From Minisyncoccota bacterium (lineage in GTDB: Bacteria > Patescibacteriota > Minisyncoccia > Phycocordibacterales > UBA9973), in the NCBI GenBank assembly GCA_041657885.1, contig JBBABB010000001.1, positions 1,094-65,093 of the forward strand: DNA of 64,000 bases, given 5' to 3'. The notes below the pieces were generated by a model. That model was not told the DNA's origin. It worked only from the letters and a program-made list of their open reading frames with translations, and searched no databases. Below, one piece after another: positions 6,902 through 64,000 of this stretch. How positions within the stretch are numbered: the stretch's first letter is position 1; each line of letters opens with the position of its first letter. Both the position numbers and the translations under genes were made by a program.

Positions 6902-6929
6902 TACTTACAACTGAATAGTTCGATCAAGA

Positions 6930-10119: not shown

Positions 10120-11034
10120 GTGATGGACAAAGAAAAAATTCAGAAAGAAATAGAAGAACTTGAGGCACAAACGGCGCAAGGGAATTTTTGGGATGATAAA
10201 ATTTCTGCACAAGCGACAATCAAACGGATTGCATTTTTGAAAGATGAAATTCTAGGAAATCAAAAATATGACAAAGGGAATTGCATACTTTCAATTCTTT
10301 CAGGCGCTGGGGGTGATGATGCCGAAGATTTTTCGGCGATGTTGCTTCGAATGTATACAAAATATTTTGAGAGAAAAGGTTGGTCTTGGGAGGTAATCCA
10401 TGAAAATAAAAATGACAACGATGGATATCGCAATGTTTCTGTTGAAGTTTCTTCTCCCCCTGCGAAGGGGGAGTGGCCGAAGGTCGAGGGGGTCTATGGC
10501 ACTTTAAAAAATGAATCAGGTGTACATCGATTAGTTCGAATATCTCCATTTAATGCGAATGCCAAAAGGCACACTTCTTTTTCTCTCGTTGAAGTGATTC
10601 CAGAATTTGCGAAAGATGATAGCGCCATAGAAATCCCCCCAAATGACCTTCGGATTGAGCTTTCAAAGTCAGGTGGCCCCGGTGGGCAAAATGTAAACAA
10701 ACGCGAGACCGCTGTCAGGGTAGTCCATTTGCCAACCAATCTGTCTGTTCATGTAACATCAGAGCGTTCTCAAGAACAAAACAAAGAAAAAGCCATTGAA
10801 ATGCTAAAAGGTAAACTTTTCAAGAAAAGAGAAGATGATAAAAAGAGAGAAAAAGACGGAATGTCCATCTCAAAGACGACAGATATAGAATGGGGAAGTC
10901 AAATTCGCTCTTATGTCCTTCATCCATATAAAATGGTCAAAGACCACCGCACGGGAGTTGAAATTAATAATGTTGACTCTGTTCTTTTGGATGGTCAGAT
11001 AGATGAATTTATTGAAACAGAACGCAATTTGTGA
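10120..11034 (+). CDS. prfB: Peptide chain release factor 2, with a short N-domain and no programmed frameshift
   Basis: SPF tripeptide, GGQ motif (GGPGGQNVNK) and GVHRLVRISPF. The N-terminal region is contiguous in a single frame. Confidence 0.85.
   Translation: MMDKEKIQKEIEELEAQTAQGNFWDDKISAQATIKRIAFLKDEILGNQKYDKGNCILSILSGAGGDDAEDFSAMLLRMYTKYFERKGWSWEVIHENKNDNDGYRNVSVEVSSPPAKGEWPKVEGVYGTLKNESGVHRLVRISPFNANAKRHTSFSLVEVIPEFAKDDSAIEIPPNDLRIELSKSGGPGGQNVNKRETAVRVVHLPTNLSVHVTSERSQEQNKEKAIEMLKGKLFKKREDDKKREKDGMSISKTTDIEWGSQIRSYVLHPYKMVKDHRTGVEINNVDSVLLDGQIDEFIETERNL
10450..10490 (+). repeat. GC-rich palindromic element (CTCCCCC-TGCGAA-GGGGGAG) inserted in-frame within prfB
   Basis: It encodes SSPPAKGEWPKVE between the conserved VEV and GVYGTLK..GVHRLVR segments. 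The hairpin core is 10454-10473. Confidence 0.6.
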
Positions 11035-15126: not shown

Positions 15127-15200
15127 TGGGAGATCGTCTAATGGTCGGACAACGGTTTCTGGAACCGTTTATCTAGGTTCGAGCCCTAGTCTCCCAGCCA
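15127..15200 (+). tRNA. tRNA-Gln (anticodon CUG)
   Basis: Cloverleaf with U1:A72, anticodon loop TTCTGGA, T-arm CTAGG-TTCGAGC-CCTAG, discriminator G and an encoded CCA. Confidence 0.8.
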
Positions 15201-24546: not shown

Positions 24547-24562
24547 AATTAAAAAATAAAAA

Positions 24563-24598
24563 CCTATACAAACTCTGCCATGGCAGAGTTTGTATAGG
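24563..24598. repeat. REP-like 36-bp palindrome, copy 1; acts as a bidirectional terminator between convergent genes
   Basis: cctatacaaactctgccatggcagagtttgtatagg is a perfect palindrome. Near-identical copies lie at 28823 and 29367. Confidence 0.6.
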
Positions 24599-24601
24599 TT
24601 T

Positions 24602-28813: not shown

Positions 28814-28822
28814 ATATAAAAA

Positions 28823-28858
28823 CCTATACATTTTCTGCCATGGCAGAGAATGTATAGG
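28823..28858. repeat. REP-like palindrome, copy 2
   Basis: cctatacattttctgccatggcagagaatgtatagg shares the core CTCTGCCATGGCAGAG with copies 1 and 3 and has compensatory arm changes. Confidence 0.6.
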
Positions 28859-28861
28859 TTT

Positions 28862-29338
28862 TTATTTGTATGGTTTTTCTAATTTGAAAGTTTTAATACA
28901 CTTATCTAATTTAATTTCCTTAATATAATCTTTAAATTCTTTTGGCATAGGAGATGGTCCCACCCAAACACTTTTTTGAATCATAATGTAATTAAATTTT
29001 TTCAAATGCCATCTCAACCATTCCCTATGAGCTTTCTTCTCTGTTGGTACATCAAACATCACCAATAGAGTTTTATCTTTGGAAATATTTTCTGGTCGAT
29101 CGAATTGTTTTAATGAATCAAATTTTCTTTTCACATATTCTTTCCCATATTTTGATAAAACTATTCCCGCCAATTCTTTTTCAATTAAACCTCTTTTCCT
29201 CAATCTACTTATAGTGTTATACATGACATCTTTTTTGTATTTCTTAAAACGGGGGATTCCAAAAAGATTTACCCTAACTCCTTTGTAGTTAAGTTCGGTA
29301 TTCCACAACTCTTCTAATAGTTCACTTACAATAGACAT
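28862..29338 (-). CDS. Small winged-HTH plus Cas2/VapD-like-pattern protein (paralog A)
   Basis: N-terminal YNTISRLRKRGLIEK (wHTH-like) and C-terminal LLVMFDVPTEKKAHREWLRWHLKKFNYIMIQKSVWVG. The ORF at 40491 is a paralog. The gene is bracketed by REP-like palindromes. Confidence 0.35.
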   Translation of the reverse strand: MSIVSELLEELWNTELNYKGVRVNLFGIPRFKKYKKDVMYNTISRLRKRGLIEKELAGIVLSKYGKEYVKRKFDSLKQFDRPENISKDKTLLVMFDVPTEKKAHREWLRWHLKKFNYIMIQKSVWVGPSPMPKEFKDYIKEIKLDKCIKTFKLEKPYK

Positions 29339-29366
29339 ACAATATATATTATATACTCTTGATAAA

Positions 29367-29404
29367 ATCTATACAAACTCTGCCATGGCAGAGATTGTAT
29401 AGAT
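29367..29404. repeat. REP-like palindrome, copy 3, in a divergent promoter region
   Basis: atctatacaaactctgccatggcagagattgtatagat. Confidence 0.6.
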
Positions 29405-29443
29405 TTCTCGAGATTAGATTTTAGTGATATAATTTAACTTAAT

Positions 29444-31175: not shown

Positions 31176-31184
31176 ATTCCCCTC

Positions 31185-32975: not shown

Positions 32976-32983
32976 GCTAAAAA

Positions 32984-33011
32984 GTAGTAAGTAGTAAGTA
33001 GTAAGTAGTAT
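32984..33011. repeat. GTAGTAA heptamer tandem array (about 4 copies) abutting the start codon of the next gene
   Basis: gtagtaa gtagtaa gtagtaa gtagtATG. Confidence 0.7.
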
Positions 33012-34746
33012 GGAATATAAATCAGAAAATCGAATATGCCAAAACTGCAAAAATGACTTCACTATTGAGCCAGATGATTTTTTGTTTTATGAAAAAATTA
33101 AAGTTCCCCCGCCTACATTTTGTCCAAATTGTAGACGAATCAGAAGATGGGTGTGGAGGAATGAAAGAACTTACTATAAAAGAAAGTGTAATGTGCCTAA
33201 CCATTCTGAGGAAATTGTCAGTCTTTATAGTCCAGAGCAACCATTTTTTGTGTATGACCAAAAATATTGGTGGTCTGACCAATGGGACCCCTTAGATTAC
33301 GGTGTGGATTATGATTTTTCGGAATCATTTTTTAAACAATTTTCGAAACTACTTAAGAATATTCCATTGATAACTTTATCAAACACCGAGGCTATAAATA
33401 GTGAATATTGCAGTTCTACTGCTTGGAATAAGGATTGTTACTTAATAAGTGCAAGTGGCTGGAACGAAAAAGTTTTATACTCTAATAGACTAGCAAAAAA
33501 TAAAGATTCGATGGATTTATATATAGCTGATAATAACGAATTGTGTTATGAGGATTTATATTGCAATAAATGTTACCAAACTTGTTACTCTAATCAGTGT
33601 GAAGGATGTAGTGATTCAATGTTTTTACACAATTGTCGTAATTGCTCCAATTGTTTTGGATGTACTAATTTAATGGGGCAAGATCATTGTTTTTTCAATA
33701 AGAAATTACCTAAAGAAGAATATAAAAGAAAAATTGCACAGCTTAATCTAGGAAGTTCAAAAGAAATTCAAAAGATAAAAAGAAAATTTTACGAAGAAAT
33801 ATATCTTAATACAATAAATAAATACTCCGACCAAATAAATTGTATCAATTCAACTGGTGACCACTTGCGTAACACAAAAAATTGCCACGAGTGTTATGAT
33901 TTTCCCGGTGATAATAATGAAGATTGTAAATTTGTAGATTGGGGGGGTTTTAAATCAAAAGATATATATGATACTGGGCCAGGTGTCGGCTGGAATACTG
34001 AACTTGTCTATGAGGGGGTAGATAATAACGACGACTCAAATATGATAGGTTGTATCGTCTGTTATAATTCAAATAATTTGTTTTATTGTATGAATTGTCA
34101 TGGTTCTTCAAATTTATTTGCTTGCATAGGGCTTCGTAATAAAAAGTACTGTATTCTTAATAAACAATATACAAAAGAAGAGTACGATGAAATAATTTTA
34201 AAAATAAAAAAACAAATGGAAGAAATTCCTTATATTGATAGAAGAGGAATGATTTATAAATATGGAGAATTTTTTCCATCAGAATTATCGCCATTTGCTT
34301 ACAATGAAACAGTAGCCCAAGAATATAACCCATTAACCAAGGAGCAAGCTCTAGAACAAGGTTACAAATGGAAAGACAAAGAAGAAAGAAACTATCAAAT
34401 AGACATTAAGAACGAAGACATTCCTGATAATATTAAAGATATAACTGATGATATCATCGGTAAAGTCATTGAATGTGGTCATAAAGGAGAATGTAACCAA
34501 CAATGTACCGAAGCCTTCAAGATAATTCCCGAAGAACTTCAATTCTACCAACGGATGAACCTTCCTCTACCTCGTCTCTGTCCTAATTGTCGTCATTATG
34601 AACGACTCTCCCAACGTAATCCTCTTAAACTCTGGCACCGTTCCTGTATGAAAGAGGGATGTAATAATGAATTTGAAACTAGCTACTCACCAGATCGACC
34701 TGAGATAGTATATTGTGAACGTTGTTATCAGAATGAAGTGTATTAA
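33010..34746 (+). CDS. Large cysteine-rich protein with duplicated N- and C-terminal zinc ribbons and internal Cys-rich repeats (unknown function)
   Basis: N-terminal FLFYEKIKVPPPTFCPNCRRIRR resembles C-terminal LQFYQRMNLPLPRLCPNCRHYER. The interior has many Cys clusters. Confidence 0.5.
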   Translation: MEYKSENRICQNCKNDFTIEPDDFLFYEKIKVPPPTFCPNCRRIRRWVWRNERTYYKRKCNVPNHSEEIVSLYSPEQPFFVYDQKYWWSDQWDPLDYGVDYDFSESFFKQFSKLLKNIPLITLSNTEAINSEYCSSTAWNKDCYLISASGWNEKVLYSNRLAKNKDSMDLYIADNNELCYEDLYCNKCYQTCYSNQCEGCSDSMFLHNCRNCSNCFGCTNLMGQDHCFFNKKLPKEEYKRKIAQLNLGSSKEIQKIKRKFYEEIYLNTINKYSDQINCINSTGDHLRNTKNCHECYDFPGDNNEDCKFVDWGGFKSKDIYDTGPGVGWNTELVYEGVDNNDDSNMIGCIVCYNSNNLFYCMNCHGSSNLFACIGLRNKKYCILNKQYTKEEYDEIILKIKKQMEEIPYIDRRGMIYKYGEFFPSELSPFAYNETVAQEYNPLTKEQALEQGYKWKDKEERNYQIDIKNEDIPDNIKDITDDIIGKVIECGHKGECNQQCTEAFKIIPEELQFYQRMNLPLPRLCPNCRHYERLSQRNPLKLWHRSCMKEGCNNEFETSYSPDRPEIVYCERCYQNEVY

Positions 34747-38100: not shown

Positions 38101-38789
38101 AAAATGCAAAACAGACACTATATTTTGTTTTAAAAACCGCCATTCAACCCTTCGCACCATTTATGCCTTTTATTGCAGAAGATATTTGGCAGAAATTAAA
38201 ATTTAATTCTGATCCAGAGAGTGTCCACTTAACAAACTTTTTCTTAGATGTTGAAACTAAAAAAATTGATAATAAAATTATCGAAGAAATGCAAAAAGCG
38301 CGTGAGGTTGTGACGCTTGGATTACAAGCTCGGCAGAAAGCGGGGATTCCGGTGAGACAACCGTTAAAAGAATTACGAATTACGAATTACGAATTACGAA
38401 AAGAATACGAGGAGATAATAAAAGATGAATTAAATGTAAAAGAAATTAAAATAATTAAAGGCGAAGAAGAGAAAGTTGAATTGGATACAAATATTACAGA
38501 AGAATTAAAGAAAGAAGGGCAATATCGCGAGCTTGTTCGAGCCATACAAGATATTCGTAAGAAAAATGGATTAAATCCAAATGATATTGTAACTCTCCAG
38601 ATTTCTGCTTCAACAGAAGGACAAGAATTGATAAATAAATTTAAAAAAGAATTAATGAAGGCAGTTAGTGCAAAAGAAATACAAATTAAAGAAAATAATG
38701 GGGTACCTGCCCGCAATACTTCTGGTACAGCTGATGCAGGCGGGGAAATAAAAATTGATGAATTAATATTTATAATTAGTCTTATATAA
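35142..38789 (+). CDS. ileS: Isoleucyl-tRNA synthetase carrying an embedded histidine-phosphatase-superfamily domain
   Basis: Class I motifs HYGH and KMSKS, plus WTISRNRYW and DCWFESGS. A ~190-aa insert between these two blocks (~36760-37340) carries RHGESEGN and THAG motifs. Confidence 0.9.
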   Translation: MDKNNEKSPPASAQGYGEAKSALPASAERSGVAKREEAILQFWKENKIFEKSLEKEAPKGKYVFYDGPPFASGLPHYGHILGSTAKDVIGRYKTMCGFNVPRRWGWDCHGLPIENIVEKDLGISGKKAIEALGIDKFTEHARSKVLTYVSEWKKTIDRMGRWVDFNNSYKTMDNTFIESVWWALGEMNKKELLYEGVRVLAYCPRCETPIANSEIAMDNSYKDITDISVYVKFQLTEASHSQISSCFTLKGSDATKKLENVLTIYLLAWTTTPWTLPGNTAIAINKKLNYVLVKNKIETGEEILIVAKELFEGLKNKFNNPEIVKEVKGSELIGLSYEPLFSYYKNKDVAKNPNIWKIWHADFVTLDKGTGVAHQAPAFGEDDMDLAKKNNVPFIRHVEPNGDFSKEITDFPNVKVKPKEDHQSTDILIIKHLAHAGLLFAKEKIIHSYPYCYRCETPLLYYALPSWFVNIQKVKNDLVKKGEEMNWIPAHLKEGRFKNTMESAPDWTISRNRYWASPLPIWKNKEGRVMVVNSLEDLKIKTKKSGNKYFVMRHGESEGNLNGLVSSSYEEDDNLTENGKRQAEEASIGLKNKKIDLIFSSPIKRTKETAEIMCSALGLDKKNIIIDDRIREISIPDYEGKTWTEFRKDFPNTIENFYHIKENNESYNDVKKRVMNFLYEIEEKYKDKNILIVTHAGPIWLAISGAMGFDAKESLNIKNIDTSGKNAEYRELDFTFIPHNENYELDLHRPYIDSVTLVDEKGEEYKRIPEVVDCWFESGSMPFAQDHYPFENKNWQKENFPAGFVAEYIAQTRTWFYYTHTISTILFGHAPFENVVTTGTILAEDGSKMSKSKNNYPDPWLLFDKYGVDALRFYLMSSTLMKGEDVNFSEKLVQEVASKIVNRFDNVMAFYELYRSKEVESSKEKIVSKNILDQWIIARTSQFINEVKDSMEIYDMAQAAKPFDLFVEDLSTWYLRRSRERIKNGDENAKQTLYFVLKTAIQPFAPFMPFIAEDIWQKLKFNSDPESVHLTNFFLDVETKKIDNKIIEEMQKAREVVTLGLQARQKAGIPVRQPLKELRITNYELRKEYEEIIKDELNVKEIKIIKGEEEKVELDTNITEELKKEGQYRELVRAIQDIRKKNGLNPNDIVTLQISASTEGQELINKFKKELMKAVSAKEIQIKENNGVPARNTSGTADAGGEIKIDELIFIISLI
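38371..38398 (+). repeat. GAATTAC heptamer x4 in-frame inside ileS
   Basis: gaattacgaattacgaattacgaattac encodes ELRITNYEL. Confidence 0.6.
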
Positions 38790-42087: not shown

Positions 42088-43974
42088 ATGCCCGAAGATA
42101 GTAAAAATAAAATTGAAGATGTAAAAAGACACCTCTATGACCCAAATGATAAATCAATGACCCACCAAAGAGAGGGTATATTACACCAGATAAGTCACAA
42201 TGTACCGCTTGAATGGAAAGAAGATAGTCAAACTAAATCGGAAGATAATATGAAGAATAAATTTAAAAAACCACCAGTATCAATATTTAAAAAGTTTTTT
42301 GTTGTCTCAATTATTTTTTTTATAGGAGCTTTGGGTTTTGCTTTCTATAAATTTTCTAATAATGATGTATCCGTATCAAGCGATAAGATAGATATAGAGG
42401 TTATTGGTAATTCTTTTACTAAAGGTGGAGATGAGTTGCCTCTTCAAATTGAAATTACTAATAATAATAATGCTAGTCTTGAACTCGCAAACCTTGTTAT
42501 AGAATATCCCAAAGGGGCAGATGATAGTGTTAATGATGTTGTTCGTCTACCTCGAGATGCTATAGGCACAGTAAAGCCCGGGGAAAGTATTATTAGAAAT
42601 ATTAAAGTTAAACTTTTTGGAGAAGAGAAATCAATTCGTAATATTAAAGTTAGCTTAGAATATCACCCCGAGGGTTCTAATGCAATTTTTACTAAAGACA
42701 AATTATATCCTGTCACAATAAGTTTGGCGCCGCTGTCTCTCATCATAGTGGCTCCTACTAGTATCTCTTCTGACCAGCCTATTTCATTTGAGATAACAGC
42801 TACATTAAATACTTCTTTACCAAACGAGAATACAATGTTGCAAGTGTCATACCCTAATAATTTCGTTTTTGATAGTGCTATACCAGCTCCTTCCTTAGGA
42901 AATTCTACTTGGGACCTTTCATCTATTACGGTCACAAACCCAGTAACCGTTGAAGTTAAAGGGCGTCTCATAGGTGAGGATGGCGATGAACAAGTATTTC
43001 ATGTTTATGCGGGGACAACCAATCAAACTAACCGGTCAGTAATAAATGTAATTTACAGTTCTATTTTGCAGAAAATTTTAATAACAAAGCCATTCCTTGA
43101 AGCGCATATTTTAGTTAATGGTCAAGACCAGACAGAGTACGCTGTTTCGGGAGGAACAACAGTTAACGGAGAGATAGCTTGGGCAAATAATTTACCAACA
43201 CGAATAACAGATGGACAAATTATTGTAAGTTTATCTGGTAATGTTTTTGATAAGAGTATGGTTAATTCAACTAATGGTTTTTATGATTCAGCGAATAATC
43301 AAATTATATGGGACAAGAATTCAGTCTCTGAATTATCAGAAATAAATCCCGGGGAAAAAGGAACAGCTTCATTTAGCTTTAAAATACCTTCTCTCGTTGG
43401 TTTATTAAATACTATTAAAGACCCACAAGTTTCTATTAAGGTCAGTATCAAAGGGAGACAACCACAACTTGGTTCTACTTATACTGATGTGAATAATTTT
43501 TCTGAAAAAGTGGTAAAGGTATTGTCTGATTTTCAGATTGCTTCATCTGCAACTTATCTTTTGGGAAGCATACCACCAAAAGCAGAAACTGAAACAAAGT
43601 ATACGGTTACTTGGACGCTTTCAAACTCTGCAAACAATATATCGGGAGCTCAAGCACGTTCTACATTACCAATATATATAAACTGGACTGGTGTTACAAC
43701 TGGAGAAAATGAAAATGTGACCTATAATGAAGTTTCTCGTGAAGTAATCTGGAATATAGGTTCGGTTCTTCCCAATACAGGGATAGATTCAAATCGCGAA
43801 GTTTCTTTTATTATTTCTCTTAAACCATCTTTATCTCAAGTAGGTAGTGTCCCTCAACTTATGAAAGAGATTTATCTTTCAGGGATGGATTCATTTGCTA
43901 ATGCTTTAATTAAAAATACTCGTGGCGTCATTACAACCTCATCAATTGGTGGTGATGGAAGGGTTACACAGTAA
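42088..43974 (+). CDS. Membrane-anchored cell-surface protein (unknown function)
   Basis: Single TM after ~75 aa, then a long beta-rich extracellular region. Confidence 0.4.
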   Translation: MPEDSKNKIEDVKRHLYDPNDKSMTHQREGILHQISHNVPLEWKEDSQTKSEDNMKNKFKKPPVSIFKKFFVVSIIFFIGALGFAFYKFSNNDVSVSSDKIDIEVIGNSFTKGGDELPLQIEITNNNNASLELANLVIEYPKGADDSVNDVVRLPRDAIGTVKPGESIIRNIKVKLFGEEKSIRNIKVSLEYHPEGSNAIFTKDKLYPVTISLAPLSLIIVAPTSISSDQPISFEITATLNTSLPNENTMLQVSYPNNFVFDSAIPAPSLGNSTWDLSSITVTNPVTVEVKGRLIGEDGDEQVFHVYAGTTNQTNRSVINVIYSSILQKILITKPFLEAHILVNGQDQTEYAVSGGTTVNGEIAWANNLPTRITDGQIIVSLSGNVFDKSMVNSTNGFYDSANNQIIWDKNSVSELSEINPGEKGTASFSFKIPSLVGLLNTIKDPQVSIKVSIKGRQPQLGSTYTDVNNFSEKVVKVLSDFQIASSATYLLGSIPPKAETETKYTVTWTLSNSANNISGAQARSTLPIYINWTGVTTGENENVTYNEVSREVIWNIGSVLPNTGIDSNREVSFIISLKPSLSQVGSVPQLMKEIYLSGMDSFANALIKNTRGVITTSSIGGDGRVTQ

Positions 43975-44032
43975 TTAAGAATTAAGAATTAAGAATTAAG
44001 AATTAAGAATTAAGAATTAAGAATTAAGAATT
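43973..44032. repeat. AATTAAG heptamer tandem array (7 full copies plus 1 partial) filling the intergenic spacer upstream of glyQS
   Basis: Exact 7-nt period; every unit contains TAA. Confidence 0.8.
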
Positions 44033-44035
44033 AAA

Positions 44036-45391
44036 ATGGAAAAAAAAGAAAACAACTTAATGGAAAAGATAATCTCACTTTGTAAAAGAAGAGGTTTTGT
44101 TTATCCCGGGTCAGAGATTTATGGTGGGTTAGCGGGGACATATGATTATGGTCCACTCGGGGTAGCTTTAAAGAATAATATAAAAAATCTTTGGTGGAAG
44201 AAGTTTGTCGATTCTCGAGAAGATATATACCCTATAGATGCTGCAATACTGATGCGTCAAGAAGTTTGGCAAAAAGTAGGGCATGTTGCTAATTTTGCGG
44301 ATCCGATGGTGGAATGCAAAAGATGTCATGAAAAATTTCGTATTGAGTTTGAAATGTCTAGTCAAAAAATACCTAAAGAAATCTATGAACATCAAGAGAC
44401 TAAACATAAATTAGGGGTGGATACTTATGAATCAATAAAACAAGATTTTTCCGAAACAAAACAATTTAATATGATGTTTAAGACCCAGATTGGAGCAGTT
44501 CTAGATTCTTCTGCCACGGTTTATCTTCGTCCAGAGACGGCGCAAGGAATGTTTGTCAATTTCAAAAATGTAGTTGATTCTTTCCACCCTAAATTACCTT
44601 TTGGTATGGCACAAATTGGGAAGGCCTTCAGGAATGAAATTACACCACGTGATTTTATTTTTCGAGTTCGTGAAATTGAACAAATGGAGATAGAGTATTT
44701 CTTGAGACCTGAGGATTGGGAAAAATATTTTGAATATTGGCGAAATGAAATGCTTGCGTGGATAGAAATGATAGGTATTGATATGAACAAAATCCACGAG
44801 CTTGAAGTGAAAGGGGCAGATCTCGCACATTATTCTAAACGCACGATAGATTTTGAATTTGATTTTCCATTTGGACGAAGTGAACTTTACGGATTAGCTT
44901 ACAGAACTGATTTTGATTTGAAGAATCACAATCTCTCATATCTTGACGAAGAGACAAATACGAAAATTGTTCCGCATGTTGTTGAACCTACTTTTGGTGT
45001 AGAAAGAACTTTTCTTGCCCTTTTGCTCTCTGCTTATACCGAAGATATAAGTGGTGAAGAAGTAAGGCTGTATTTGGCATTCAATCCAACTGTTGCACCG
45101 GTTATATGTGCAGTGTCGCCACTTCTTAAAAATAAACCAGAACTTCGTGATTATGCGCATTTAGTTTATCGTACGCTTAAAGATGAGTTCGGACGTGTGA
45201 TGTGGGATGATAACGGTAATATTGGCAAACGTTATCGTCGACAAGATGAAATCGGTACCCCTTGGTGTATTGTTATAGACTTTGACACCCTCACAGATGA
45301 TTCTGTAACTATCCGCGACCGCGATACAGGCAAGCAAGAAAGAATTAAAAAAGAAGATATTGTGGATTATATAAAAGACAAGATGAATTAA
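44036..45391 (+). CDS. glyQS: Glycyl-tRNA synthetase (class II, alpha2 type)
   Basis: Motif 2/3 regions ([35 protein letters not shown]). Confidence 0.9.
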   Translation: [451 protein letters not shown]

Positions 45392-47891: not shown

Positions 47892-49401
47892 TATGCAAAA
47901 ATCATTTTTTCTAACAACAACGCTCCCTTATATAAATGCGCCACTTCATATGGGTAATGCGCTTGAATTTGTGCGCGCTGATACGATTGCCCGCTACAAA
48001 AAGCTTCTTGGTTTTGATGTATATTTTAATACGGGAACAGATGAGCATGGAATAAAAAATTATCTAAAAGCCGAAGAAAAAAAGATATCGGTAGAAAATT
48101 TTGTGGACCTTGGTTTTGCAACTTTTAAAGAGCAACTTAAAATGTTTGGAGTAAGCGATGATATACATTTCGTTCGCACAACAGATAAACATCACGAATT
48201 CGCAGCGCAGGAATTTTGGAAGAAAGTAGCAAACAACGGTTACATTTATAAGAAAAATTATGAAGCTAAATATTGTGTTGGTTGCGAGAGTGAAAAAACT
48301 GATTCGGAGTTGAATGATGCAGGTGAATGTCCAGAGCACCCGGGTAAAAAACTTGAGACAATAAATGAAGAGAATTATTTTTTTAAATATTCAGCCTTCC
48401 AACAACAACTTTTAGATTTTTATGAGAAAAATCCAAGTTTTGTAATTCCAGATTTTCGTTTTAATGAAATGAAAAATTTTGTCAAAAATGGATTACGTGA
48501 TTTTTCAATTTCAAGGTTAAAATCAAAAATGCCTTGGGGAATAGAAGTGCCAGGAGATAAAAATCACGTAATGTATGTTTGGTTTGATGCACTTGTAAAT
48601 TATATTTCAACGCTTGGTTGGCCTAAAACACGTGCTAATGGCACGTGTTCGACCGAACATTCATCTACTGATGAATGTTTTAGGCCAGATGAAGAAGATT
48701 TATTTACTAAGTATTGGGTCAATGGTACTCCCACGCAGTATTGCGGAAAAGATAATACTCGTTTTCAAGGTGCAATGTGGCAAGCTATGCTTATGGCAGC
48801 AGGATTACCGAACTCGCACCAAATAGTTGTGAATGGATTTATCACAGCCGAAGGAGGAGTACGAATGTCAAAAACTATTGGGAACGTAGTTGACCCAAGG
48901 GATATTGTAAAAGAGTATGGGACAGACGCATTGCGATATTTTCTCTTGCGAGAAGTCGGAAGTTTTGAAGATAGTCCATTTACAATTGAACGTTTTAAAG
49001 ATGCGTACAATTCAGGTCTTGCAAACGGGCTGGGGAATTTGGTGAGTCGCGTGATGACTATGGCTGTGAGTTATGGAGTAAAACTTTCAGGTATTGATTT
49101 GGAAGTTAAATATTATACAAATCCAATTGAAGAATTAGAAAGTTTTGATATAAATAAATTTATAAATAAAATTTGGGCAGATTTAAAAAGTTTGGATGAA
49201 TATATACAAAAGAACGAACCATTTAAGAAAATAAAAATAAACAAAGAAGAAGCCAAAAAAGATGTTTATTATTTACTTTTTCATTTGTATAAATGCGCAT
49301 TGGCTATTGAACCGTTGTTGCCTGAAACATCAAAGAAAATTCAAGAATTAATAAAAGAGAATAAAAAACCAAAGCAACCATTATTTTTAAGGAAAGAATA
49401 A
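47851..49401 (+). CDS. metG: Methionyl-tRNA synthetase
   Basis: PYINAPLHMGNALE (variant of the HLGH motif), zinc knuckle CVGCESEKTD...ECPEHPG and KMSKS variant VRMSKT. The likely start is 47893. Confidence 0.85.
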   Translation: MILKRKRFFQRRSSMQKSFFLTTTLPYINAPLHMGNALEFVRADTIARYKKLLGFDVYFNTGTDEHGIKNYLKAEEKKISVENFVDLGFATFKEQLKMFGVSDDIHFVRTTDKHHEFAAQEFWKKVANNGYIYKKNYEAKYCVGCESEKTDSELNDAGECPEHPGKKLETINEENYFFKYSAFQQQLLDFYEKNPSFVIPDFRFNEMKNFVKNGLRDFSISRLKSKMPWGIEVPGDKNHVMYVWFDALVNYISTLGWPKTRANGTCSTEHSSTDECFRPDEEDLFTKYWVNGTPTQYCGKDNTRFQGAMWQAMLMAAGLPNSHQIVVNGFITAEGGVRMSKTIGNVVDPRDIVKEYGTDALRYFLLREVGSFEDSPFTIERFKDAYNSGLANGLGNLVSRVMTMAVSYGVKLSGIDLEVKYYTNPIEELESFDINKFINKIWADLKSLDEYIQKNEPFKKIKINKEEAKKDVYYLLFHLYKCALAIEPLLPETSKKIQELIKENKKPKQPLFLRKE

Positions 49402-50038: not shown

Positions 50039-51007
50039 ATGCCTAAATACATTGATATACATTCACACGTAAATTTCAAAGCATTTGATGAGGACAGGGA
50101 TGCGGTTATTCGTCATGCCCTCGACAATGATACTTGGGTCATAAATATCGGCACACAATTTGATACTTCAAAAAAGGCAGTTGAGATGACGAACGATTAT
50201 AAGGAAGGAATTTATGCAACAATTGGGCTACATCCGATTCACACTGATGTTTCGTATCATGATGAAAATGAATTGGGTGCTGAGGCTAGCGAATTTATCT
50301 CTCGTGGAGAAATTTTTGACAAAGAAAAATATAGAGAGCTCGCAAAACTTGGTAAGGTTGTCGCAATAGGGGAATGCGGACTTGATTATTATAGAATGGA
50401 ACTAGAATCTATTGAAAAACAAAAAGTTGCTTTTATTGCTCAGATTGAATTGGCTAATGAACTTAATCTTCCACTTATGCTCCATGTTAGAAATCCTTCA
50501 CCCCTCAGTCCCTTGGACAGCTCCTTACAGGAGCAGTACACCTTTCGCATTTTGATTACAAAAATGCTCAAGGTCTTGCACTTGGGTCCCTTTCCCAAGC
50601 TCACCCCTTCGCAGGGGAGCAAGAATGCTTATGCCGATGTTGCTGATTTATTAAAAAAATATTCAAAAAGAGAAATAAAAGGTGTGTCACATTTCTTTGC
50701 AGGAAATGTGGAAGATATGAAAAGATTTATTGAGATAGGTGTATATGTTTCTTTTGCTGGTCCAATAACTTATAAACCAAAACCAGAAATTTGTGATTAT
50801 ATAAGTGTTATAAAAGAAACCCCCGTGGATATGATATTGGCTGATACAGACAGCCCCTATGTCGCTCCAGTGCCTCACAGGGGAGAGAGAAATGAACCAA
50901 GCAATGTTTGTGATATAGTAGCTAAAATAGCTGAAATTAAAGAGTTATCGAAAGAAGAAGTTGCAACAGTAATTCTCTCTAATGCAAAAAAACTCTTTGA
51001 CTTATAG
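50039..51007 (+). CDS. tatD: TatD-family metal-dependent DNase with an in-frame insertion
   Basis: IDIHSHV N-terminus and GECGLDY. A ~46-aa GC-rich insert lies at ~50487-50625. Confidence 0.8.
   Translation: MPKYIDIHSHVNFKAFDEDRDAVIRHALDNDTWVINIGTQFDTSKKAVEMTNDYKEGIYATIGLHPIHTDVSYHDENELGAEASEFISRGEIFDKEKYRELAKLGKVVAIGECGLDYYRMELESIEKQKVAFIAQIELANELNLPLMLHVRNPSPLSPLDSSLQEQYTFRILITKMLKVLHLGPFPKLTPSQGSKNAYADVADLLKKYSKREIKGVSHFFAGNVEDMKRFIEIGVYVSFAGPITYKPKPEICDYISVIKETPVDMILADTDSPYVAPVPHRGERNEPSNVCDIVAKIAEIKELSKEEVATVILSNAKKLFDL
50487..50625 (+). repeat. GC-rich palindromic element cluster inserted in-frame within tatD
   Basis: cttgggtccctttcccaag and ccccttcgcagggg hairpins encode PSPLSPLDSS...LTPSQGSKN. 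Confidence 0.6.
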
Positions 51008-52129: not shown

Positions 52130-52147
52130 ACCCCTCCGCCTACGGCA

Positions 52148-52167
52148 CCTCCCCTTCGCAGGGGAGG
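52148..52167. repeat. GC-rich palindromic element (CCTCCCC-TTCGCA-GGGGAGG), intergenic between ssb and rpsR
   Basis: Same core as the elements in prfB, tatD and the infB-rbfA spacer. Confidence 0.6.
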
Positions 52168-52205
52168 AAGAATACAAAAAATTAAAAATTTAACAAATCA
52201 CTAAC

Positions 52206-52406: not shown

Positions 52407-52424
52407 AAGAATCACCACCCCCTG

Positions 52425-52484
52425 CCCCCTCCTCAATAAGGAGGGGGTTTTGGATTTCCCAGACAGTGCTTTAGGCGCTGTCTG
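52425..52484 (+). terminator. Tandem GC hairpins after rpsR (ccccctcc-tcaataa-ggaggggg then cagacag..ctgtctg)
   Basis: The first hairpin is followed by TTTTGG. Confidence 0.5.
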
Positions 52485-52565: not shown

Positions 52566-54233
52566 ATGAAAAAAATATTATTAGGATTGTTTGTTTTGAG
52601 TTTTTTGGTGGTTGGTTATAATGCCTATGCTGAAAGTGCTGTTGATTGCCCCGCAGATCAAAATTACAGCTCTCTAACAGGAGAGCTTTGTGGTTGTTCA
52701 CATAATGAAGTTTATAGTTCAACAACAGGACAGACATGTCCAGTTATTGTTCCTTCTATTAAGGTCACATCTCCTAACAGTGGCTTTGAAGCGATAGAAT
52801 CAGGTCAAAAAGTAGAAATAAGATGGGAATCAAACGTTTCAATAAATGCTTTGGTAGACGTTTACGTTTCAGACAGGATTCATACAGGAGAAGTAGTAAG
52901 GACCAATAATAATGGTGCTCATGGTTTAATATATACTCTCGATAACAGTTTAACTCCGGGTTCAAATTATAGAGCTTATGTTTCTCTCGTTTCCGAAAAC
53001 CCAGTTAGTGATTCGTCAGATAATCCATTTATCATTAAACCCGCAAATTCTGGTTGTTTAAATGGCGAAGTTTTTAGTTCTACCACAGGAGCAATTTGTC
53101 CTACTACTCCTTATAAAATTACTACTACGACAGATTTAACTCCTCGTATTTCATATTGGCAAGGTAAGGTGAATCAACATGTAAGTGTAAGTGAGGGCAT
53201 GTGGCAAACAGATTCGGATGGAGTTTCGGGAGCTGAAATCAACAAGCTCACATATTGTAAAAAGTTTTATCCAAATACGACGAGTGTAGTTGAATACAAG
53301 AAGGAATATATAAATGCTTGGCATGATAGGGGTAATGTAAATGATTATTTAGGTCTGAACATGTCTTATCAATGCGTGGGAATAGATGCTGGTTGTTCAA
53401 ATGGCCAAGTTTATAGTTCAACAACAGGGCAAAGATGTCTTGTAAATACAAATCCAATAATTTCAGGAATTTCTGGTCCACAAACATTAGCCATAACTCA
53501 ATCTGGAACATGGAAGGTTACAGCTTCAAGTTCAAGTGGAGGAAATCTAACATATTCTGTTGTTTGGGGAGATGAAGCTGTTCAAACAAATTATTCCACT
53601 GCAACAAGGCAAATACCTCAGCAATCAGCAACATTTACTCACAGTTATTCACAAATAGGAACATATACACCAACATTTACTGTTACAAATAGTAATGGTG
53701 GAAGTGCAAAGACAAGTATCACAGTAAAAGTAAATAATTTAACAAATACTTGCCCTGTTGTATTGACAGATTGTATAGTTGGTTATTCTGCTGTACTTTC
53801 GGGTAAAGATTCCAATGGTTGTAATTCTTGGTCCTGCAAAAAAGATTCTGAATCAGATAATGGATGTCATTTAGGTAACATATATAGTGTTACGACTGGC
53901 AAAATGTGTCCTATCAAAGATGATGGGTGTCTTCTCGGTTATAACTATAGTCCAATAACAGGAAAAGCATGTGTTGAATATTTTATTTATCCATGTACCT
54001 CTTCATCAGAATCTAATTGTTTTAATCCAACTACTTCCATAACTAGAACCCTCAAGGTTGGTACGACAGGGGAGGATGTTAAAACATTACAGTCATTCCT
54101 TGGGATAAACGCAGATGGAGTATTCGGTCGCGGAACGCAAGCCAGTGTTATAAACTGGCAAACATCAAAGGGTCTCACTGCTGATGGTGCATTTGGAAGT
54201 ATGAGTCGTGCAAAAGCAGGATTTACTCAATAA
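52566..54233 (+). CDS. Secreted protein with about 6 cysteine-containing YSSTTGQxCP repeats, an Ig/PKD-like segment and a C-terminal peptidoglycan-binding domain
   Basis: Signal peptide, repeats of C..G.VYSSTTGQ.CP, and a PG_binding_1-like C-terminus (GEDVKTLQSFLG...DGVFG). Confidence 0.6.
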   Translation: MKKILLGLFVLSFLVVGYNAYAESAVDCPADQNYSSLTGELCGCSHNEVYSSTTGQTCPVIVPSIKVTSPNSGFEAIESGQKVEIRWESNVSINALVDVYVSDRIHTGEVVRTNNNGAHGLIYTLDNSLTPGSNYRAYVSLVSENPVSDSSDNPFIIKPANSGCLNGEVFSSTTGAICPTTPYKITTTTDLTPRISYWQGKVNQHVSVSEGMWQTDSDGVSGAEINKLTYCKKFYPNTTSVVEYKKEYINAWHDRGNVNDYLGLNMSYQCVGIDAGCSNGQVYSSTTGQRCLVNTNPIISGISGPQTLAITQSGTWKVTASSSSGGNLTYSVVWGDEAVQTNYSTATRQIPQQSATFTHSYSQIGTYTPTFTVTNSNGGSAKTSITVKVNNLTNTCPVVLTDCIVGYSAVLSGKDSNGCNSWSCKKDSESDNGCHLGNIYSVTTGKMCPIKDDGCLLGYNYSPITGKACVEYFIYPCTSSSESNCFNPTTSITRTLKVGTTGEDVKTLQSFLGINADGVFGRGTQASVINWQTSKGLTADGAFGSMSRAKAGFTQ

Positions 54234-54234
54234 T

Positions 54235-54272
54235 TAAGAATTAAAAATTAATAATTAAAAATTAAATGCAAA
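54235..54272. repeat. Degenerate AATTAAN heptamer array (about 5 copies)
   Basis: aattaag aattaaa aattaat aattaaa aattaaa. Confidence 0.6.
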
Positions 54273-54348: not shown

Positions 54349-55098
54349 TTATATTAGTTGTAAGGATTTAAGAAATTCTTTTAATTCTTTTTCTTTGATT
54401 TCTTGAAACTCTCCAAGGGGTATTTTATCAAGCACTATGTTCATTATACGTATTCGTTTTAAGTTGATGACATTATGGTGTAATGCCTCACACATGCGTC
54501 TTATTTGGCGTTTTTTACCCTCTGTGAGGACTATATGGAAGGTATCTTTGGACTTTGGCTTGCGGAATACTTCGCACTTCCTACTGATAAATCCGTCAAA
54601 GTGAACACCGTTTGACATTAATTCTACAAATTTATCTGAAAAGTTTGGCTCTACTTTTACAACATATTCTTTTTCATGAACATATTTGGGAGAAAGAAGT
54701 CGGTCTGTTACTCGGCCATCGTTTGTCATTATCATTAGCCCATGCGAATCTTTATCAAGTCGGCCAACAGGGAAGACAGAATTCCCCCTCCCCTTACTAA
54801 GGGGAGGGTTGGGGAGGGGTATTGGAAATTTTGTGACTGATAAAATATCTTTGGAATTGAGCTCGGGATTAGTTGCAATTCCAATCGGTTTATTGTAAGC
54901 ATAATAAACAAAATCTTTGTGGATACCTTTTGATTTTACAACTACTTGATCTCCCTCATTTACTTTATCTCCTAAAACTGCCTTTCTGCCATTTATAGAA
55001 ACAAGACCTTTTTTGATAAGGTCGTCTCCACCCACGCGAGTAGAGTAATTATTCATTGCGAGATATTTATTTATTCGGATCGGGTAAAATATTTTCAT
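54349..55098 (-). CDS. rluB: Pseudouridine synthase, RsuA/RluB family (S4 domain plus catalytic domain) with an in-frame insert
   Basis: S4 domain (RINKYLA..GRKAV) and catalytic PVGRLDKDSHGLMIMTNDG. Confidence 0.8.
   Translation of the reverse strand: MKIFYPIRINKYLAMNNYSTRVGGDDLIKKGLVSINGRKAVLGDKVNEGDQVVVKSKGIHKDFVYYAYNKPIGIATNPELNSKDILSVTKFPIPLPNPPLSKGRGNSVFPVGRLDKDSHGLMIMTNDGRVTDRLLSPKYVHEKEYVVKVEPNFSDKFVELMSNGVHFDGFISRKCEVFRKPKSKDTFHIVLTEGKKRQIRRMCEALHHNVINLKRIRIMNIVLDKIPLGEFQEIKEKELKEFLKSLQLI
54785..54821. repeat. GC-rich element (CCCCCTCCCC-TTACTAA-GGGGAGGG-TT-GGGGAGGGG) in-frame within rluB
   Basis: It encodes PLPNPPLSKGRGNS immediately before the conserved FPVGRLD. A near-identical element lies at 63284-63319. 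Confidence 0.6.
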
Positions 55099-58303: not shown

Positions 58304-58343
58304 CTTTTTCTTTGGCTCGCCGAAGCAAAAGCGTAGGCGGCTG

Positions 58344-61048: not shown

Positions 61049-61055
61049 AATTTAT

Positions 61056-61141
61056 GCTCCCCTGCGAAGGGGAGCTGTCGCTTGCGACTGAGGGGTGATA
61101 CACCCCCTCGTCCTCCGGGCACTCCCCCTTCGCAGGGGGAG
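61056..61141. repeat. Three tandem GC-rich palindromic hairpins in the infB-rbfA spacer
   Basis: gctcccc-tgcgaa-ggggagc; gagggg-tgatacac-cccctc; ctccccc-ttcgca-gggggag. Confidence 0.7.
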
Positions 61142-61150
61142 AAAAATACG

Positions 61151-62680
61151 TTACTTAATTACTATTTCAAAAACTTCTAAAACATCACCTGCTGAAATGT
61201 CTATTTTGGTTTCTACTTGAATTCCACAATCAGAGCCCTCTAAAACTTCTCTTGATTTTAATTTGTTCACTTGTAATTCTACAATTTTTCCAGTTCCTAT
61301 TTCAAAATCACGACGAATTATACGGATTTTACTGCCGAGAGCTATTCTTCCAGTTGTAACTTTTCCCCCGACGATATGCTTATCCTTTGTTGACCCAAAT
61401 GTTTTTAGAACTTTGAGAGACCCTATTACTTCTATAGTTTCAAGACGAGGACGACGAATTTCTACGAGTTCTTTTAGCCAATCAGTAAGTTTATAAATAA
61501 TATTAAATATTTCCACATTTACCTTCAGGGTCTCATTCAAATCCCCAGCTCCACTGTCCATCTTTGTATTAAATCCAACAATTATACTTTCTTTATTCAC
61601 ATTTCCCATTTTGAGGTCTGATTCATTTATCGCTCCAACTCCCTTACTAATTATTTTGAATGAAATTTCTTCGGTATTTAATTTTGCTATTTCTTTTTCT
61701 ATGGCTTCGATTGTTCCAGAAACATCTGTTTTTATTATTATCGGAATTATTTTACCTGCCTTGCCGGTAGGCAGGCTCCCGACGTTTACAGTCGAGACCC
61801 CGACTCCTTTGGACTTCGGGGCAGTAACGCTCAATTTTACATAATTTTCAGCTTCTTTTTTTGTGTTAAATGACTCAAATACATTACCCACTTCTGGCAT
61901 TGATTCAAATCCAACAAGTTTAATAGGGGACGAGAAGGTGGCTTCTTTTATGGGTTTACCCAAGAAGTTCTCCATTATACGGGTGTTAACTATGGCTTCT
62001 CCACAGGCTACAAACATTCCAGCACGAAGTGTCCCGTCTTTTATCACACATGTTGCAGAAACTCCTCGTTTTGGTTCACGTTTTGCTTCTATTATTACGC
62101 CCGTAGCATTTAGTTCTCTGTTTCCGGTGAGTCCTTGTAGGTCAGCAACAAGAATAATCATCTCTAAAAGCTCGGATACACCTGTTCCTGCTTTAGCTGA
62201 AATAAGAACAAAAGGAATATCGCCACCCATTCCTTCTAAATATATTTCTTTTTCAGATAAATCCATTTTTGTTTTTTCAATGTTGGCATTTGGTTTATCT
62301 ATTTTATTTATAGCTACAATATATGGAATTTTACTTTCCATTATTGTTTTGTAGGCTTCAAGTGTTTGAGCCTTAACTCCATCTTCAGCTGATACGACTA
62401 GTATTGCAATGTCTGCGGCTTGTGCGCCACGAGTTCGCATTTTTGAAAATGCTTCGTGTCCGGGTGTATCTAAAAATGTGATTAGTCGATTTTCACCTTT
62501 ATCATCCTTAGCCACAACTTCATACGCACTAATATGCTGAGTTATTCCACCCGCTTCACCTTCGACGATATTTGATTTCCTAATATAGTCAAGAAGAGTT
62601 GATTTTCCATGGTCAACGTGCCCCATAACAACTACTACGGGAGGGCGAACCTTTTCAATTGTTTTTGTTTCTGTTGACAT
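61151..62680 (-). CDS. infB: Translation initiation factor IF-2 (short form)
   Basis: G-domain [25 protein letters not shown], and C-terminal beta-barrel domains. Confidence 0.9.
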
Positions 62681-63342: not shown

Positions 63343-64000
63343 ATGTTTAGAAATAAAAATATTTATCTTGATTATGCAAGTGCTACGCCGATAGATAAAA
63401 GTGTGGCACGGAAAATGGCTCTTTATGAGTGTAATTTTTTTACTAATTCAAGTGCGATACACCAAGAAGGGGTTAAAGTAAGAAATGTTATAGAGGAATC
63501 AAGGAATAAAATTGCGAAGCTTATAAATGCTCATAATGATGAGATTATTTTTACAGGGAGTGGAACAGAAAGCATTGCCCTCGCTTTGCTCGGGCTAATT
63601 AAGAATTATGAATTAAGAATTAAGAATGAAAATTCCGAATTCGAATATAAAAAGCCACATATAATTACTACAAAAATAGAACATCCTGCAGTACTTGAAA
63701 ATTGTAAAATGCTCGAAGAGAGCGGGGAAGCTGAAGTCACTTATATTTCTGTTGATAAATCTGGAATTGTAAATCTCGAAGAATTAAAAGATTCTTTGAA
63801 AGAAAATACGGTTTTAGTTTCGGTAATGTATGCGAACAATGAAATTGGGACGGTCCAACCGATACAGGAGATTGCAAAAATAATTCGGCATTTTAAGAAG
63901 AATTACCTTACCCCAGCCCTCTCCAAAGGAGAGGGAGCTCCTTCCCCTTTGGGGAAGGCGGGGGATGGGGTTTTCCCTGTTTTCCACACAGATGCATGTC
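63343..64000 (+). CDS. Cysteine desulfurase (IscS/NifS-like), 5' part, with two in-frame low-complexity inserts
   Basis: IYLDYASATP, FTGSGTESI and ..HTDA motifs. Inserted segments are IKNYELRIKNENSEFEYKK and LTPALSKGEGAPSPLGKAGDG. Confidence 0.75.
   Translation, partial: MFRNKNIYLDYASATPIDKSVARKMALYECNFFTNSSAIHQEGVKVRNVIEESRNKIAKLINAHNDEIIFTGSGTESIALALLGLIKNYELRIKNENSEFEYKKPHIITTKIEHPAVLENCKMLEESGEAEVTYISVDKSGIVNLEELKDSLKENTVLVSVMYANNEIGTVQPIQEIAKIIRHFKKNYLTPALSKGEGAPSPLGKAGDGVFPVFHTDAC

Follow-up and report, generated by a model that had tools for sequence, protein, structure and literature searches.

How does a run of 44 GC-rich, palindromic codons come to lie inside an otherwise ordinary gene of an AT-rich bacterium, and does it belong to the protein or to DNA of another kind? 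The question is raised by the gene tatD in a stretch of 64,000 nucleotides from a Minisyncoccota bacterium (Patescibacteriota; assembly GCA_041657885.1, contig JBBABB010000001.1, positions 1,094 to 65,093, forward strand), the whole of which is called the window in the following. The best answer, to which we give a probability of roughly three in four, is that the segment is selfish repeat DNA and consists of two nested or fused members of a GC-rich, hairpin-forming, non-autonomous family of AT-rich Paceibacteria genomes of the Candidate Phyla Radiation (CPR). The segment belongs to a repeat family whose copies lie in unrelated genes, in different frames and on both strands, and close relatives differ in their presence or absence. 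Moreover, its base pairs covary, it is conserved at the nucleotide level, the frame of the host gene is intact and so is the modelled TIM barrel. In the literature covered by our searches the family is undescribed, no such elements having been returned for CPR bacteria.

The insert in tatD and its two layers

The host gene, the insert and its parts are located as follows (L numbers denote compared loci).

50039..51007, plus strand: tatD, host gene, 322 aa, TatD-family metal-dependent hydrolase/DNase (list of open reading frames (ORFs); Pfam PF01026)
50495..50626, plus strand: whole insert, 132 nt with 51.5% GC, 44 codons (PSPLSPLDSSLQEQYTFRILITKMLKVLHLGPFPKLTPSQGSKN), folding into five small hairpins in a row (delimited by gaps against 1j6o, insert-free Paceibacteria TatD and L001)
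50495..50524, plus strand: 5' part of the outer element, CCTTC-ACCCCTC, hairpin 1 (GTCC-CTT-GGAC, 50508-50518) and AGCTCC, the left half of the hairpin-2 stem (collinear with L083, L084 and L085)
50525..50605, plus strand: inner 81-nt unit, three hairpins, encodes LQEQYTFRILITKMLKVLHLGPFPKLT (absent from tatD of L083, L084 and L085)
50520-50534, plus strand: hairpin a, its 5' arm being flank sequence
50540-50574, plus strand: hairpin b, ACCTT-TC-GCATTTT...AAAATGC-TC-AAGGT
50581-50599, plus strand: hairpin c, CTTGGG-TCCCTTT-CCCAAG
50606..50626, plus strand: 3' part of the outer element, hairpin-2 core CCCCT-TCGC-AGGGG (50604-50617), then AGC-AAGAAT

In the ORF list the reading frame of tatD is unbroken across the insert, which is in frame and free of stop codons. 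P0001, a protein of identical sequence, carries the annotation TatD family hydrolase (Ca. Paceibacterota), and the Pfam family TatD_DNase (PF01026) matches the product with 1.3e-65, the match being split into two stretches. In the alignment with TatD of T. maritima (1j6o), residues 5-152 of the query correspond to residues 14-142 of the chain and residues 196-320 to 142-263; because both halves meet at chain residue 142, residues 153-195 have no counterpart. The insert is placed between the LMLHVRN strand and the AYADV helix, with AYADVADLL directly 3' of it. In a comparison set of 82 related loci from GTDB species representatives, many deep Paceibacteria TatD proteins read PLMLHIR[ND]/AYxDA, with zero residues at the insertion point (slash). 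The excess amounts to 37 codons over the nearest PKDGSRN-type orthologue and to 27 codons over the closest relatives having the short element alone. Judging by these alignments, the insert is not a TatD loop. The tatD insert itself is known from one contig; an assembly artefact is unlikely in view of the unbroken frame, of the same composite in L090, which comes from an unrelated sample, and of a second assembly that contains the neighbouring doublet.

The insert has a GC content of 51.5% compared to 35.2% in the rest of tatD and 33.8% in the window, of which 1.1% of all 132-nt segments reach 50% GC. The GC skew is -0.35 to -0.27 inside the insert and positive in the flanks. The insert region folds as RNA with -46.5 kcal/mol compared to -35.0 +/- 3.7 for shuffled sequences (z -3.15; none of 200 shuffles as good) and as DNA with a z value of -4.83. 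The ends of the insert pair in the minimum free energy structure only via a 4-bp helix of flanking tatD sequence, which is weakened in the centroid structure. The original prediction, made from the letters of the sequence, had placed an insert of about 46 codons at 50487-50625; the insert is real, its extent is corrected here to 44 codons at 50495-50626. The resumption of the core motifs at AYADVADLL and the higher GC content were borne out, local GC skew, which had been proposed as a check, reverses its sign inside the insert, and both named hairpins exist (CTTGGGTCCCTTTCCCAAG at 50581-50599 and CCCCTTCGCAGGGG at 50604-50617), to which three more were added (50508-50518, 50520-50534 and 50540-50574).

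Two layers can be distinguished within the insert. The outer unit of ~51 nt (17 codons) consists of ACCCCTC, hairpin 1, hairpin 2 (GCTCCCCTTCGCAGGGGAGC) and AAGAAT; of the 120 closest TatD orthologues, 10 have it at the same codon. In the close relatives L083, L084 and L085 this 51-nt element reads CCTTCACCCCTCAG-TCC-TAC-GGA-CAG-CTCCCCTTCGCAGGGGAG-CAGAAAT. The inner 81-nt unit is found in tatD of this genome only; it splits hairpin 2, being placed within its 5' arm, and the core of hairpin 2 starts 2 nt within the codon-based segment of the inner unit. R2, a covariance model of ten copies of the short element in its ~57-nt form, matches the composite twice, the match to the 5' part (50495-50524) reaching 39.2 bits. 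The pentamer AGCTC is present at both junctions of the inner unit (50519-50523 and 50598-50602), 79 nt apart. A reading of the short copy in L083 (CAGCTCACC) as deletion scar of the long form was rejected: a deletion between the AGCTC repeats removes 79 nt and breaks the frame, and the L083 copy has the length of the other short copies.

The site in the protein was surveyed in the 120 closest TatD proteins. A loop of 7-8 residues, typically NPTDKTHN, is found in 84 of them, and 35 have a loop of 12-22 residues belonging to several unrelated types (NPTD-LSAQAG-KTRN, SPLSPxDSSPSQGS(R/K)N, QPAPDKQGGLAG-NPTDKTHN, NPNKIHPALQAPLNEGNLN, QPNASTPSLRATPQEGNLN, PLNEGNLN); the loop of 44 residues is found in tatD of the window alone. 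Where the DNA is in hand, the loop cassettes are GC-rich hairpins (CCTGCCTGCGCAGGCAGG in L013, CCCCTCAACGAGGGG in L023), and the cassettes of other genomes have dispersed copies elsewhere among the fetched loci. The TatD loop appears from these sequences as a hot spot, which takes up several unrelated cassette types at a single codon.

The DNA encoding the NPTDKTHN loop (L003-L008; AAT CCT ACA GAC AAA...) is similar to the CCTACGGAC core in hairpin 1 of the short element. This similarity may be coincidental, or the ordinary 8-residue loop may derive from an ancient element that has since eroded.

A dispersed family of hairpin repeats

The basic unit of the family, ~57 nt in length, is composed of ACC(C)CCTC, hairpin 1, hairpin 2 and A(A/G)GAAT and is found between genes, in inverted pairs and in either orientation within genes. 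The original prediction had suggested searching for the palindromes elsewhere in the genome. A motif scan for CCCCTTCGCAGGGG on both strands with up to 2 mismatches resulted in 11 matches in the window compared to 0.06 expected, and CCCCTTCGCAGGGG is present at 5 window sites. Outside of tatD the window contains the following copies.

10446..10497, minus strand: short element in prfB (RF2), in frame, antisense, encodes SSPPAKGEWPKVEG (R2 66.8 bits; inverted-repeat pair)
52130..52175, plus strand: short element directly 3' of the ssb stop codon (R2 67.1 bits)
54784..54822, minus strand: related cassette (CCCTCCCCTTACTAAGGGGAGGG plus tail), in frame in a pseudouridine-synthase gene, encodes IPLPNPPLSKGRG (R2 26.9 bits)
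61050..61149: two short elements, head to head, in the gap from the infB stop to the rbfA start (61050-61097 minus strand, 61098-61149 plus strand)

The prfB copy is 90% complementary over 49 nt to 61098-61146 and adds 10 residues compared to the solved RF2 structure 9fy1; the Pfam domains PCRF and RF-1 are found in prfB. The position behind ssb is also filled in L083 (12002-12059, 68.1 bits) and in L090 (4702-4758, 59.7 bits). The doublet between infB and rbfA is reproduced in an independent assembly of the same organism (L094), and in L083 both genes are 4 nt apart. The cassette in the pseudouridine-synthase gene is absent from L001, L083 and L085. A search of 1.39 Mb of Paceibacteria DNA with R2 yields 45 matches with E <= 0.1, some of them intergenic. 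Of the stronger matches, about one in two lies within a long ORF, sense or antisense; the host genes comprise tatD, metG (in at least 7 genomes), prfB, ftsK-like genes and others, and antisense copies were found in prfB, in an ftsK-like gene of L012 and in L030.

These copies bear on what had been claimed for the tatD insert. The proposed link to prfB holds, since the prfB copy belongs to the same family in reverse orientation. The CCCC/GGGG family, to which both inserts had been assigned, is correct for the outer two-hairpin unit, which relates tatD to prfB, whereas the cttgggtccctttcccaag hairpin belongs to the inner three-hairpin unit. That the segment is foreign GC-rich palindromic DNA agrees with its absence from insert-free orthologues and from the solved TatD structure and with its paralogues in prfB and in intergenic DNA. 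Conservation of the segment as TatD loop among orthologues had been named as the outcome that speaks against the prediction. To the letter, such conservation was found for the outer 51 nt in the 10 orthologues mentioned, whereas the inner 81 nt are genome-specific; the outer 51 nt are not an ancestral TatD loop because they are a dispersed repeat, and most of the surveyed proteins have the loop of 7-8 residues and deeper relatives have none.

The complete composite is found in other genomes as well. A scan of JGI metagenomes with the 19-mer of hairpin c resulted in 8 contigs, four of which are low in GC and Paceibacteria-like and have GGTCTTGCRCTTGGGTCCCTTTCCCAAGCTCACCC in common. In L090, which is syntenic with the window, the whole five-hairpin composite lies in frame in metG and is read in frame +2 (…TPSASGTSLTETVHPSHLNTEAQGLALGSLSQAHPFAGGEES…) compared to frame +0 in tatD. 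The metG loop of L001, L084, L085 and L009 contains the short element alone, and its basal state is TLGWPENIEQFEKYW. Two genomes therefore have the three-hairpin piece (81 and 78 nt) in two unlinked genes, each time at the same point within a resident short element. A third, intergenic copy of the composite in L037 has the three inner hairpins in the same order as metG of L090 and tatD, and the linkers CTGTACACC, GCTCARGGTCTTGC and AAGCTCACCCC are identical across unlinked loci of different genomes. In L089 (96-261), an intact tRNA-Gln(CTG) lies beside a second, degenerate tRNA-Gln-like copy, and a related 88-nt element with hairpin c and the junction AAGCTC/ACCCC (slash at the boundary) interrupts the T-arm of the tRNA-Gln-like copy exactly after GGGGT; the orthologue of this tRNA gene in the window (15127-15200) is single. 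No further copy of the composite was found in 17 kb of additional contig flank (L094, L095). Viral contigs gave zero matches to the hairpin-c pattern and four to CTCCCCTTCGCAGGGGAG, all of which are terminator-like hairpins in contigs of ~50-59% GC without the flanks of the family.

At the site of the L090 composite, the metG loop of the window (48616-48690) contains a different, AT-richer palindromic cassette. Its outer stem CCTAAAAC/GTTTTAGG encloses AACACGTGC-TAATG-GCACGTGTT and GAACATTCATC-TACT-GATGAATGTT; the same layout with compensatory stem changes (AACTTGCGC...GCGCAAGTT) is found in L008 (7805-7936). From the cassettes found there, the MetRS loop appears to behave like the TatD loop in taking up several cassette types.

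Several other GC-rich stretches in the window and its relatives were recorded. Further in-frame inserts are found in ileS (38700-38744) and near the start of the RNase J gene (58304-58339), and each of the ileS, pseudouridine-synthase and RNase J-region inserts is missing in at least one of the syntenic relatives L001, L083 and L085. L085 has a GC-rich insert of its own (PASPSQGG, 75% GC) in an aminoacyl-tRNA synthetase gene of the tRNA-synt_2b family (class II). In infB, an in-frame, GC-rich stretch of 75 nt (61751-61825) forms three small hairpins, and its loop GTTTACAG resembles the TTACA loop of hairpin a; in the comparison with L083 no insertion of at least 5 residues was flagged there, and if it is an insert, L083 may share it. 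A hairpin cassette between dut and argS (31178-31222; CCCCTCTTGAGGGG plus GGACTCTGTAATCAGAGGAC) matches part of the L021 TatD-loop cassette with 95% identity over 22 nt.

Constraint, mobility and rival explanations

The hairpins are maintained in pairs. In the three composites, on which the covariation figures rest and which make them indicative, 93.7% of the cells are paired compared to 32-53% with slid partners, and both sides have changed in 13 of 37 pairs compared to 0-4 with slid partners, which was matched by none of 500 shuffles. The stem of hairpin 2 is replaced as a whole between lineages (CTCCCC/GGGGAG, TCCTCCTC/GAGGAGGA, CCCTCC/GGAGGG). Furthermore, the identity at third codon positions is 71-94% in the 51-nt element compared to 51-58% in the rest of tatD (window, L083, L084, L085). 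Three of the six frames of the composite are open, two different forward frames being used (tatD and metG), and DNA of the family is read in two forward frames, lies antisense or remains untranslated between genes. According to these comparisons, the conservation acts at the nucleotide level and not at the protein level.

On the side of the protein, AlphaFold2 run with 32 orthologues predicts a confident TIM barrel (predicted template modelling score 0.83), in which the insert residues lie between the strand 146-151 (LMLHVR) and the helix 197-208. Residues 153-196 have block means of the predicted local distance difference test (pLDDT) of ~49-66, with a tentative helix at 161-180, and the residues near the known TatD motifs are invariant in the orthologue alignment. 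The simplest reading of the model is that the insert, which is apparently translated, forms a tolerated surface excursion of TatD. A phmmer search with the 44-residue peptide against 1.84 billion cluster representatives resulted only in P0122, a translated tandem repeat and spurious match. Six-frame translations compared to 5.8 billion proteins gave 40 candidates and no real match, a search that also missed the organism's own TatD and is thus uninformative.

The reading that fits best is that of a non-autonomous palindromic repeat family of the REP/BIME/RPE kind (repetitive extragenic palindromes, their mosaic elements and Rickettsia palindromic elements), which is tolerated as a surface loop. 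One unit would have settled in the loop behind the metal-binding HxR strand, a state common to related species, and in this genome a further 81-nt piece with three hairpins would have entered the stem of hairpin 2, giving the 132-nt composite. We infer a spread at the DNA level by hairpin-directed transposition or recombination supplied in trans, either by a RAYT-like protein as for REP/BIME or by a nuclease such as the DUF559 proteins, which are flanked by related modules. Within genes, only insertions whose length is divisible by 3, which have no stop codon and which lie in a permissive surface loop would persist; the insert would remain in the mRNA and be translated into a flexible excursion that TatD tolerates.

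Several observations weigh against this reading. Only three full composites are at hand, and the copy in tatD could be a retained ancestral form and not a secondary insertion. Covariation and conservation of third positions would also fit a selected function of the RNA or DNA. None of the 41 window ORFs scanned against Pfam has a transposase domain and no DUF559 homologue was found in the window; neither transposase nor RAYT nor DUF559 was found in Pfam calls or by tblastn in 17 kb of flanks. The other ORFs of the window are known through precomputed Pfam calls of syntenic relatives, and the coverage is ~80 kb of the 362-kb contig. As regards the features of a MITE, there are no clear terminal inverted repeats, CCCCT...AGGGG (5-7 nt) being all that can pair between the ends. 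AGCTC was rejected as target-site duplication, its spacing being 79 nt and the insertion 81 nt, and no target-site duplication is present at the L090 or L089 junctions.

The DUF559 genes offer a possible source of such mobility. Related genomes repeatedly have small genes of this family (Vsr-like PD-(D/E)XK) in intergenic slots, most frequently in the metG-tatD interval (3' of metG, just upstream of tatD), and also 3' of a glyS-like gene:

L006:9486-9941, L014:9314-9721, L024:9159-9551, L027:9562-9936
L029:5139-5513 and 9530-9928, L032:9646-9996, L083:9504-9890, L084:1010-1438
L004:5653-6042, L018:5715-6044, L021:5709-6044

Among the fetched loci, a strong GC hairpin lies within 120 nt of 13 of 14 DUF559 genes compared to 28 of 150 other ORFs. 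The flanking modules are of a GC-rich two-hairpin type related to the tatD element, R2, which was derived from tatD-type copies, matches them with 33-44 bits, and in L014 an identical 57-nt module is found on both sides of the DUF559 cassette. It is a tentative idea, for which we see a modest chance, that the two-hairpin modules are non-autonomous partners or recognition sites of the DUF559 nuclease genes, which would constitute an undescribed class of mobile or homing elements in CPR bacteria. A nuclease cassette of ~120 residues bounded by GC-rich hairpin modules would then move between intergenic slots, and solo modules, together with three-hairpin add-ons that target the module's own stem, would colonise permissive loops as in tatD, metG and prfB. 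DUF559 as trans-acting factor is hypothetical.

Compared to selfish DNA, it is unlikely that the hairpin array is a functional nucleic-acid structure under selection with the coding insertions as a side effect. Such a structure might stabilise the mRNA, serve as RNase processing site or ribosome-pausing element, or be a protein-binding DNA site similar to the REP sites bound by gyrase or IHF or to uptake sequences. This would explain the compensatory changes in all hairpins, the third codon positions being far more conserved than in the host gene, the metG copy of about the same nucleotide sequence in L029 and L030, whose TatD is only ~52% identical, and the copy behind ssb kept in three genomes. 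However, copies occur on both strands relative to transcription (antisense in prfB, in L030 and in the ftsK-like gene of L012), so that no single role at the RNA level can account for all of them, and individual copies are dispensable in close relatives. The hairpins have no Rfam family match (Rfam 15 at permissive E-values gave no relevant family for the insert, the whole window and related loci), and, lacking a T-tract, they are not intrinsic terminators: no terminator-like site was detected in 50495-50626 or 52130-52175 by a scan that found the rpsR terminator (52424-52448) as positive control. For uptake sequences, the density of ~5 per 64 kb is too low and the sequence variability too high. 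The palindromes might also be no mobile copies at all but local products of template switching or fold-back, formed while a mutation-tolerant loop was replicated or repaired. In line with this, the TatD and MetRS loops have a wide variety of small palindromes in different lineages, and the 3' arm of hairpin a complements the local 5' flank (GCTCC/GGAGC in tatD, TCTC/GAGA in L090). Nevertheless, the same order of five hairpins with identical linkers at unlinked loci of different genomes and the dozens of dispersed copies found by the family model make this highly improbable, and the paralogous copies largely refute it.

Two further explanations start from the gene product. A lineage-specific protein insertion selected for TatD function, as new surface helix or interaction loop, would be in frame and free of stop codons as observed, would account for the helix predicted at 161-180 and would suit the position of the loop on the catalytic face of the barrel. 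It is hardly credible, however, given that the same DNA is read in another frame in metG, lies antisense in prfB and is untranslated between genes, and given the conservation at the nucleotide level, the low pLDDT and a peptide without relatives in 1.84 billion proteins. Alternatively, the segment could be removed or skipped before the protein is complete, as a mini-intron, an intein or a bypass element like the byps of yeast mitochondria, which are likewise GC-rich hairpin elements in an AT-rich genome; the strong structure of the insert would suit this. Both coding copies are, however, exact multiples of 3 and free of stops in the host frame (inner unit 81 and 78 nt, total 132 nt in tatD), which would be needless if the segment were removed. 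Together with the lack of a match to intron or ribozyme families, of intein motifs in the 44 residues and of a take-off stop codon, this leaves removal or skipping barely conceivable.

CPR/Patescibacteria genomes are usually described as streamlined. The selfish-repeat reading would imply an active layer of selfish DNA in them, in which structured repeats land repeatedly in the same loops of essential enzymes. Many unusual insertions and differences in length among CPR proteins would be explained by the family, which can also lead the annotation of orthologues and domains astray, and its inserts would be natural markers of permissive protein sites. If the DUF559 link or the self-targeting of hairpin 2 is true, a new mechanism of hairpin-directed mobility would be at work.

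Known repeat families and other features of the window

The elements described here fail at least one defining feature of each family they were compared to, i.e., they work alike without being members. For yeast mitochondria, byps derived from GC clusters reportedly break the frame and are skipped by the ribosome. The GC clusters are similar to the present family as mobile GC-rich palindromic clusters in a very AT-rich genome, coding regions included; they differ in being organellar, and their byp derivatives break the frame and are skipped, whereas the present elements preserve the frame and are most simply explained by read-through.

Small repeats that have entered protein genes in frame are established among the Rickettsia RPEs and among certain repeats of enterobacteria and streptococci (PMC3184786, PMC2759123). 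RPEs are short palindromic repeats within essential protein genes, which stay intact (Ogata et al. 2000, reviewed in PMC3184786). Likewise, the present elements are non-autonomous palindromic repeats of roughly 100-150 nt, lie between genes and in frame in essential genes without inactivating them, form surface excursions and belong to the small genome of a host-dependent bacterium; in-frame insertion with the gene remaining intact was found in tatD, prfB, the pseudouridine-synthase gene, metG of L090 and other loci. However, an RPE is one element-wide palindrome, whereas the tatD element is a string of independent hairpins with nested modules, and RPE copies share one frame and related peptides, whereas here different frames and both strands are used and no common peptide results. 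The phylum is different as well, the present element is GC-rich in an AT-rich genome, and the comparison with RPEs is one of architecture only.

REP, BIME and REPIN elements are GC-rich palindromes with a GTAG or CGTC tag and are associated with RAYT transposases (PMC3733652, PMC3184786). The present family resembles them in its GC-rich imperfect palindromes of 20-40 nt in many copies, in mosaic combinations and inverted doublets (61050-61149), in sites just 3' of stop codons and in stems that covary between lineages. In contrast to REPs, which are extragenic by definition, many copies are intragenic; the ten aligned copies have no consistent GTAG/CGTC tag, CCTACGG being confined to some of the hairpin-1 loops, and the DNA examined (~80 kb of the 362-kb contig) yielded no RAYT gene. 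With RU/ERIC and BOX/RUP/SPRITE the elements share repeat units having open frames fused in frame to host genes (PMC2759123, PMC3184786); those mostly extend the ends of genes and are not found inside catalytic domains, and their architectures are different (terminal inverted repeats, terminator-like). The IS200/IS605-derived PATEs are similar in having subterminal hairpins and neither obvious terminal inverted repeats nor target duplication. Moreover, 4 of 4 copies of hairpin c abut ...AAGCTC/ACCC(C), four junctions being all that are at hand, and the L089 insertion follows GGGGT. In the present elements, however, the hairpins at the two ends differ from each other and a Y1 transposase was not seen, so the PATE likeness is a resemblance and not membership.

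Apart from the hairpin family, the window contains several other features. Two inverted repeats of 171 nt (3264-3434 and 8890-9060; 98% complementary) bracket an island of 5.4 kb with two N6/N4 DNA methylase genes and unknown ORFs, and a second assembly breaks at the 171-nt repeat. Just upstream of the window (L095:7393-9998) a large serine recombinase, a GIY-YIG gene and an HTH gene are encoded. The 5.4-kb region is likely to be an integrated island of the defence or mobile kind. Another repeat family, which is AT-rich, is found at 24553-24608, 28794-28885 and 29339-29412 as long, perfect intergenic palindromes with arms of 28 nt (AAAACCTATACAAACTCTGCCATGGCAGAGTTTGTATAGGTTTT), two of which flank a Cas2-like/PaaX_M gene (28862-29338). 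Runs of tandem heptamers (AATTAAG, GTAGTAA, AATTACG) lie just 5' of several start codons:

43966-44036, 32965-33015, 38364-38400, 54225-54265 and 63583-63640: tandem heptamer runs

Finally, a SAM (S-adenosylmethionine) riboswitch at 6918-7024 scores 56 bits, which is over the Rfam gathering score, and overlaps the listed GTG start of the ORF 6930-7367, which was probably called too early.

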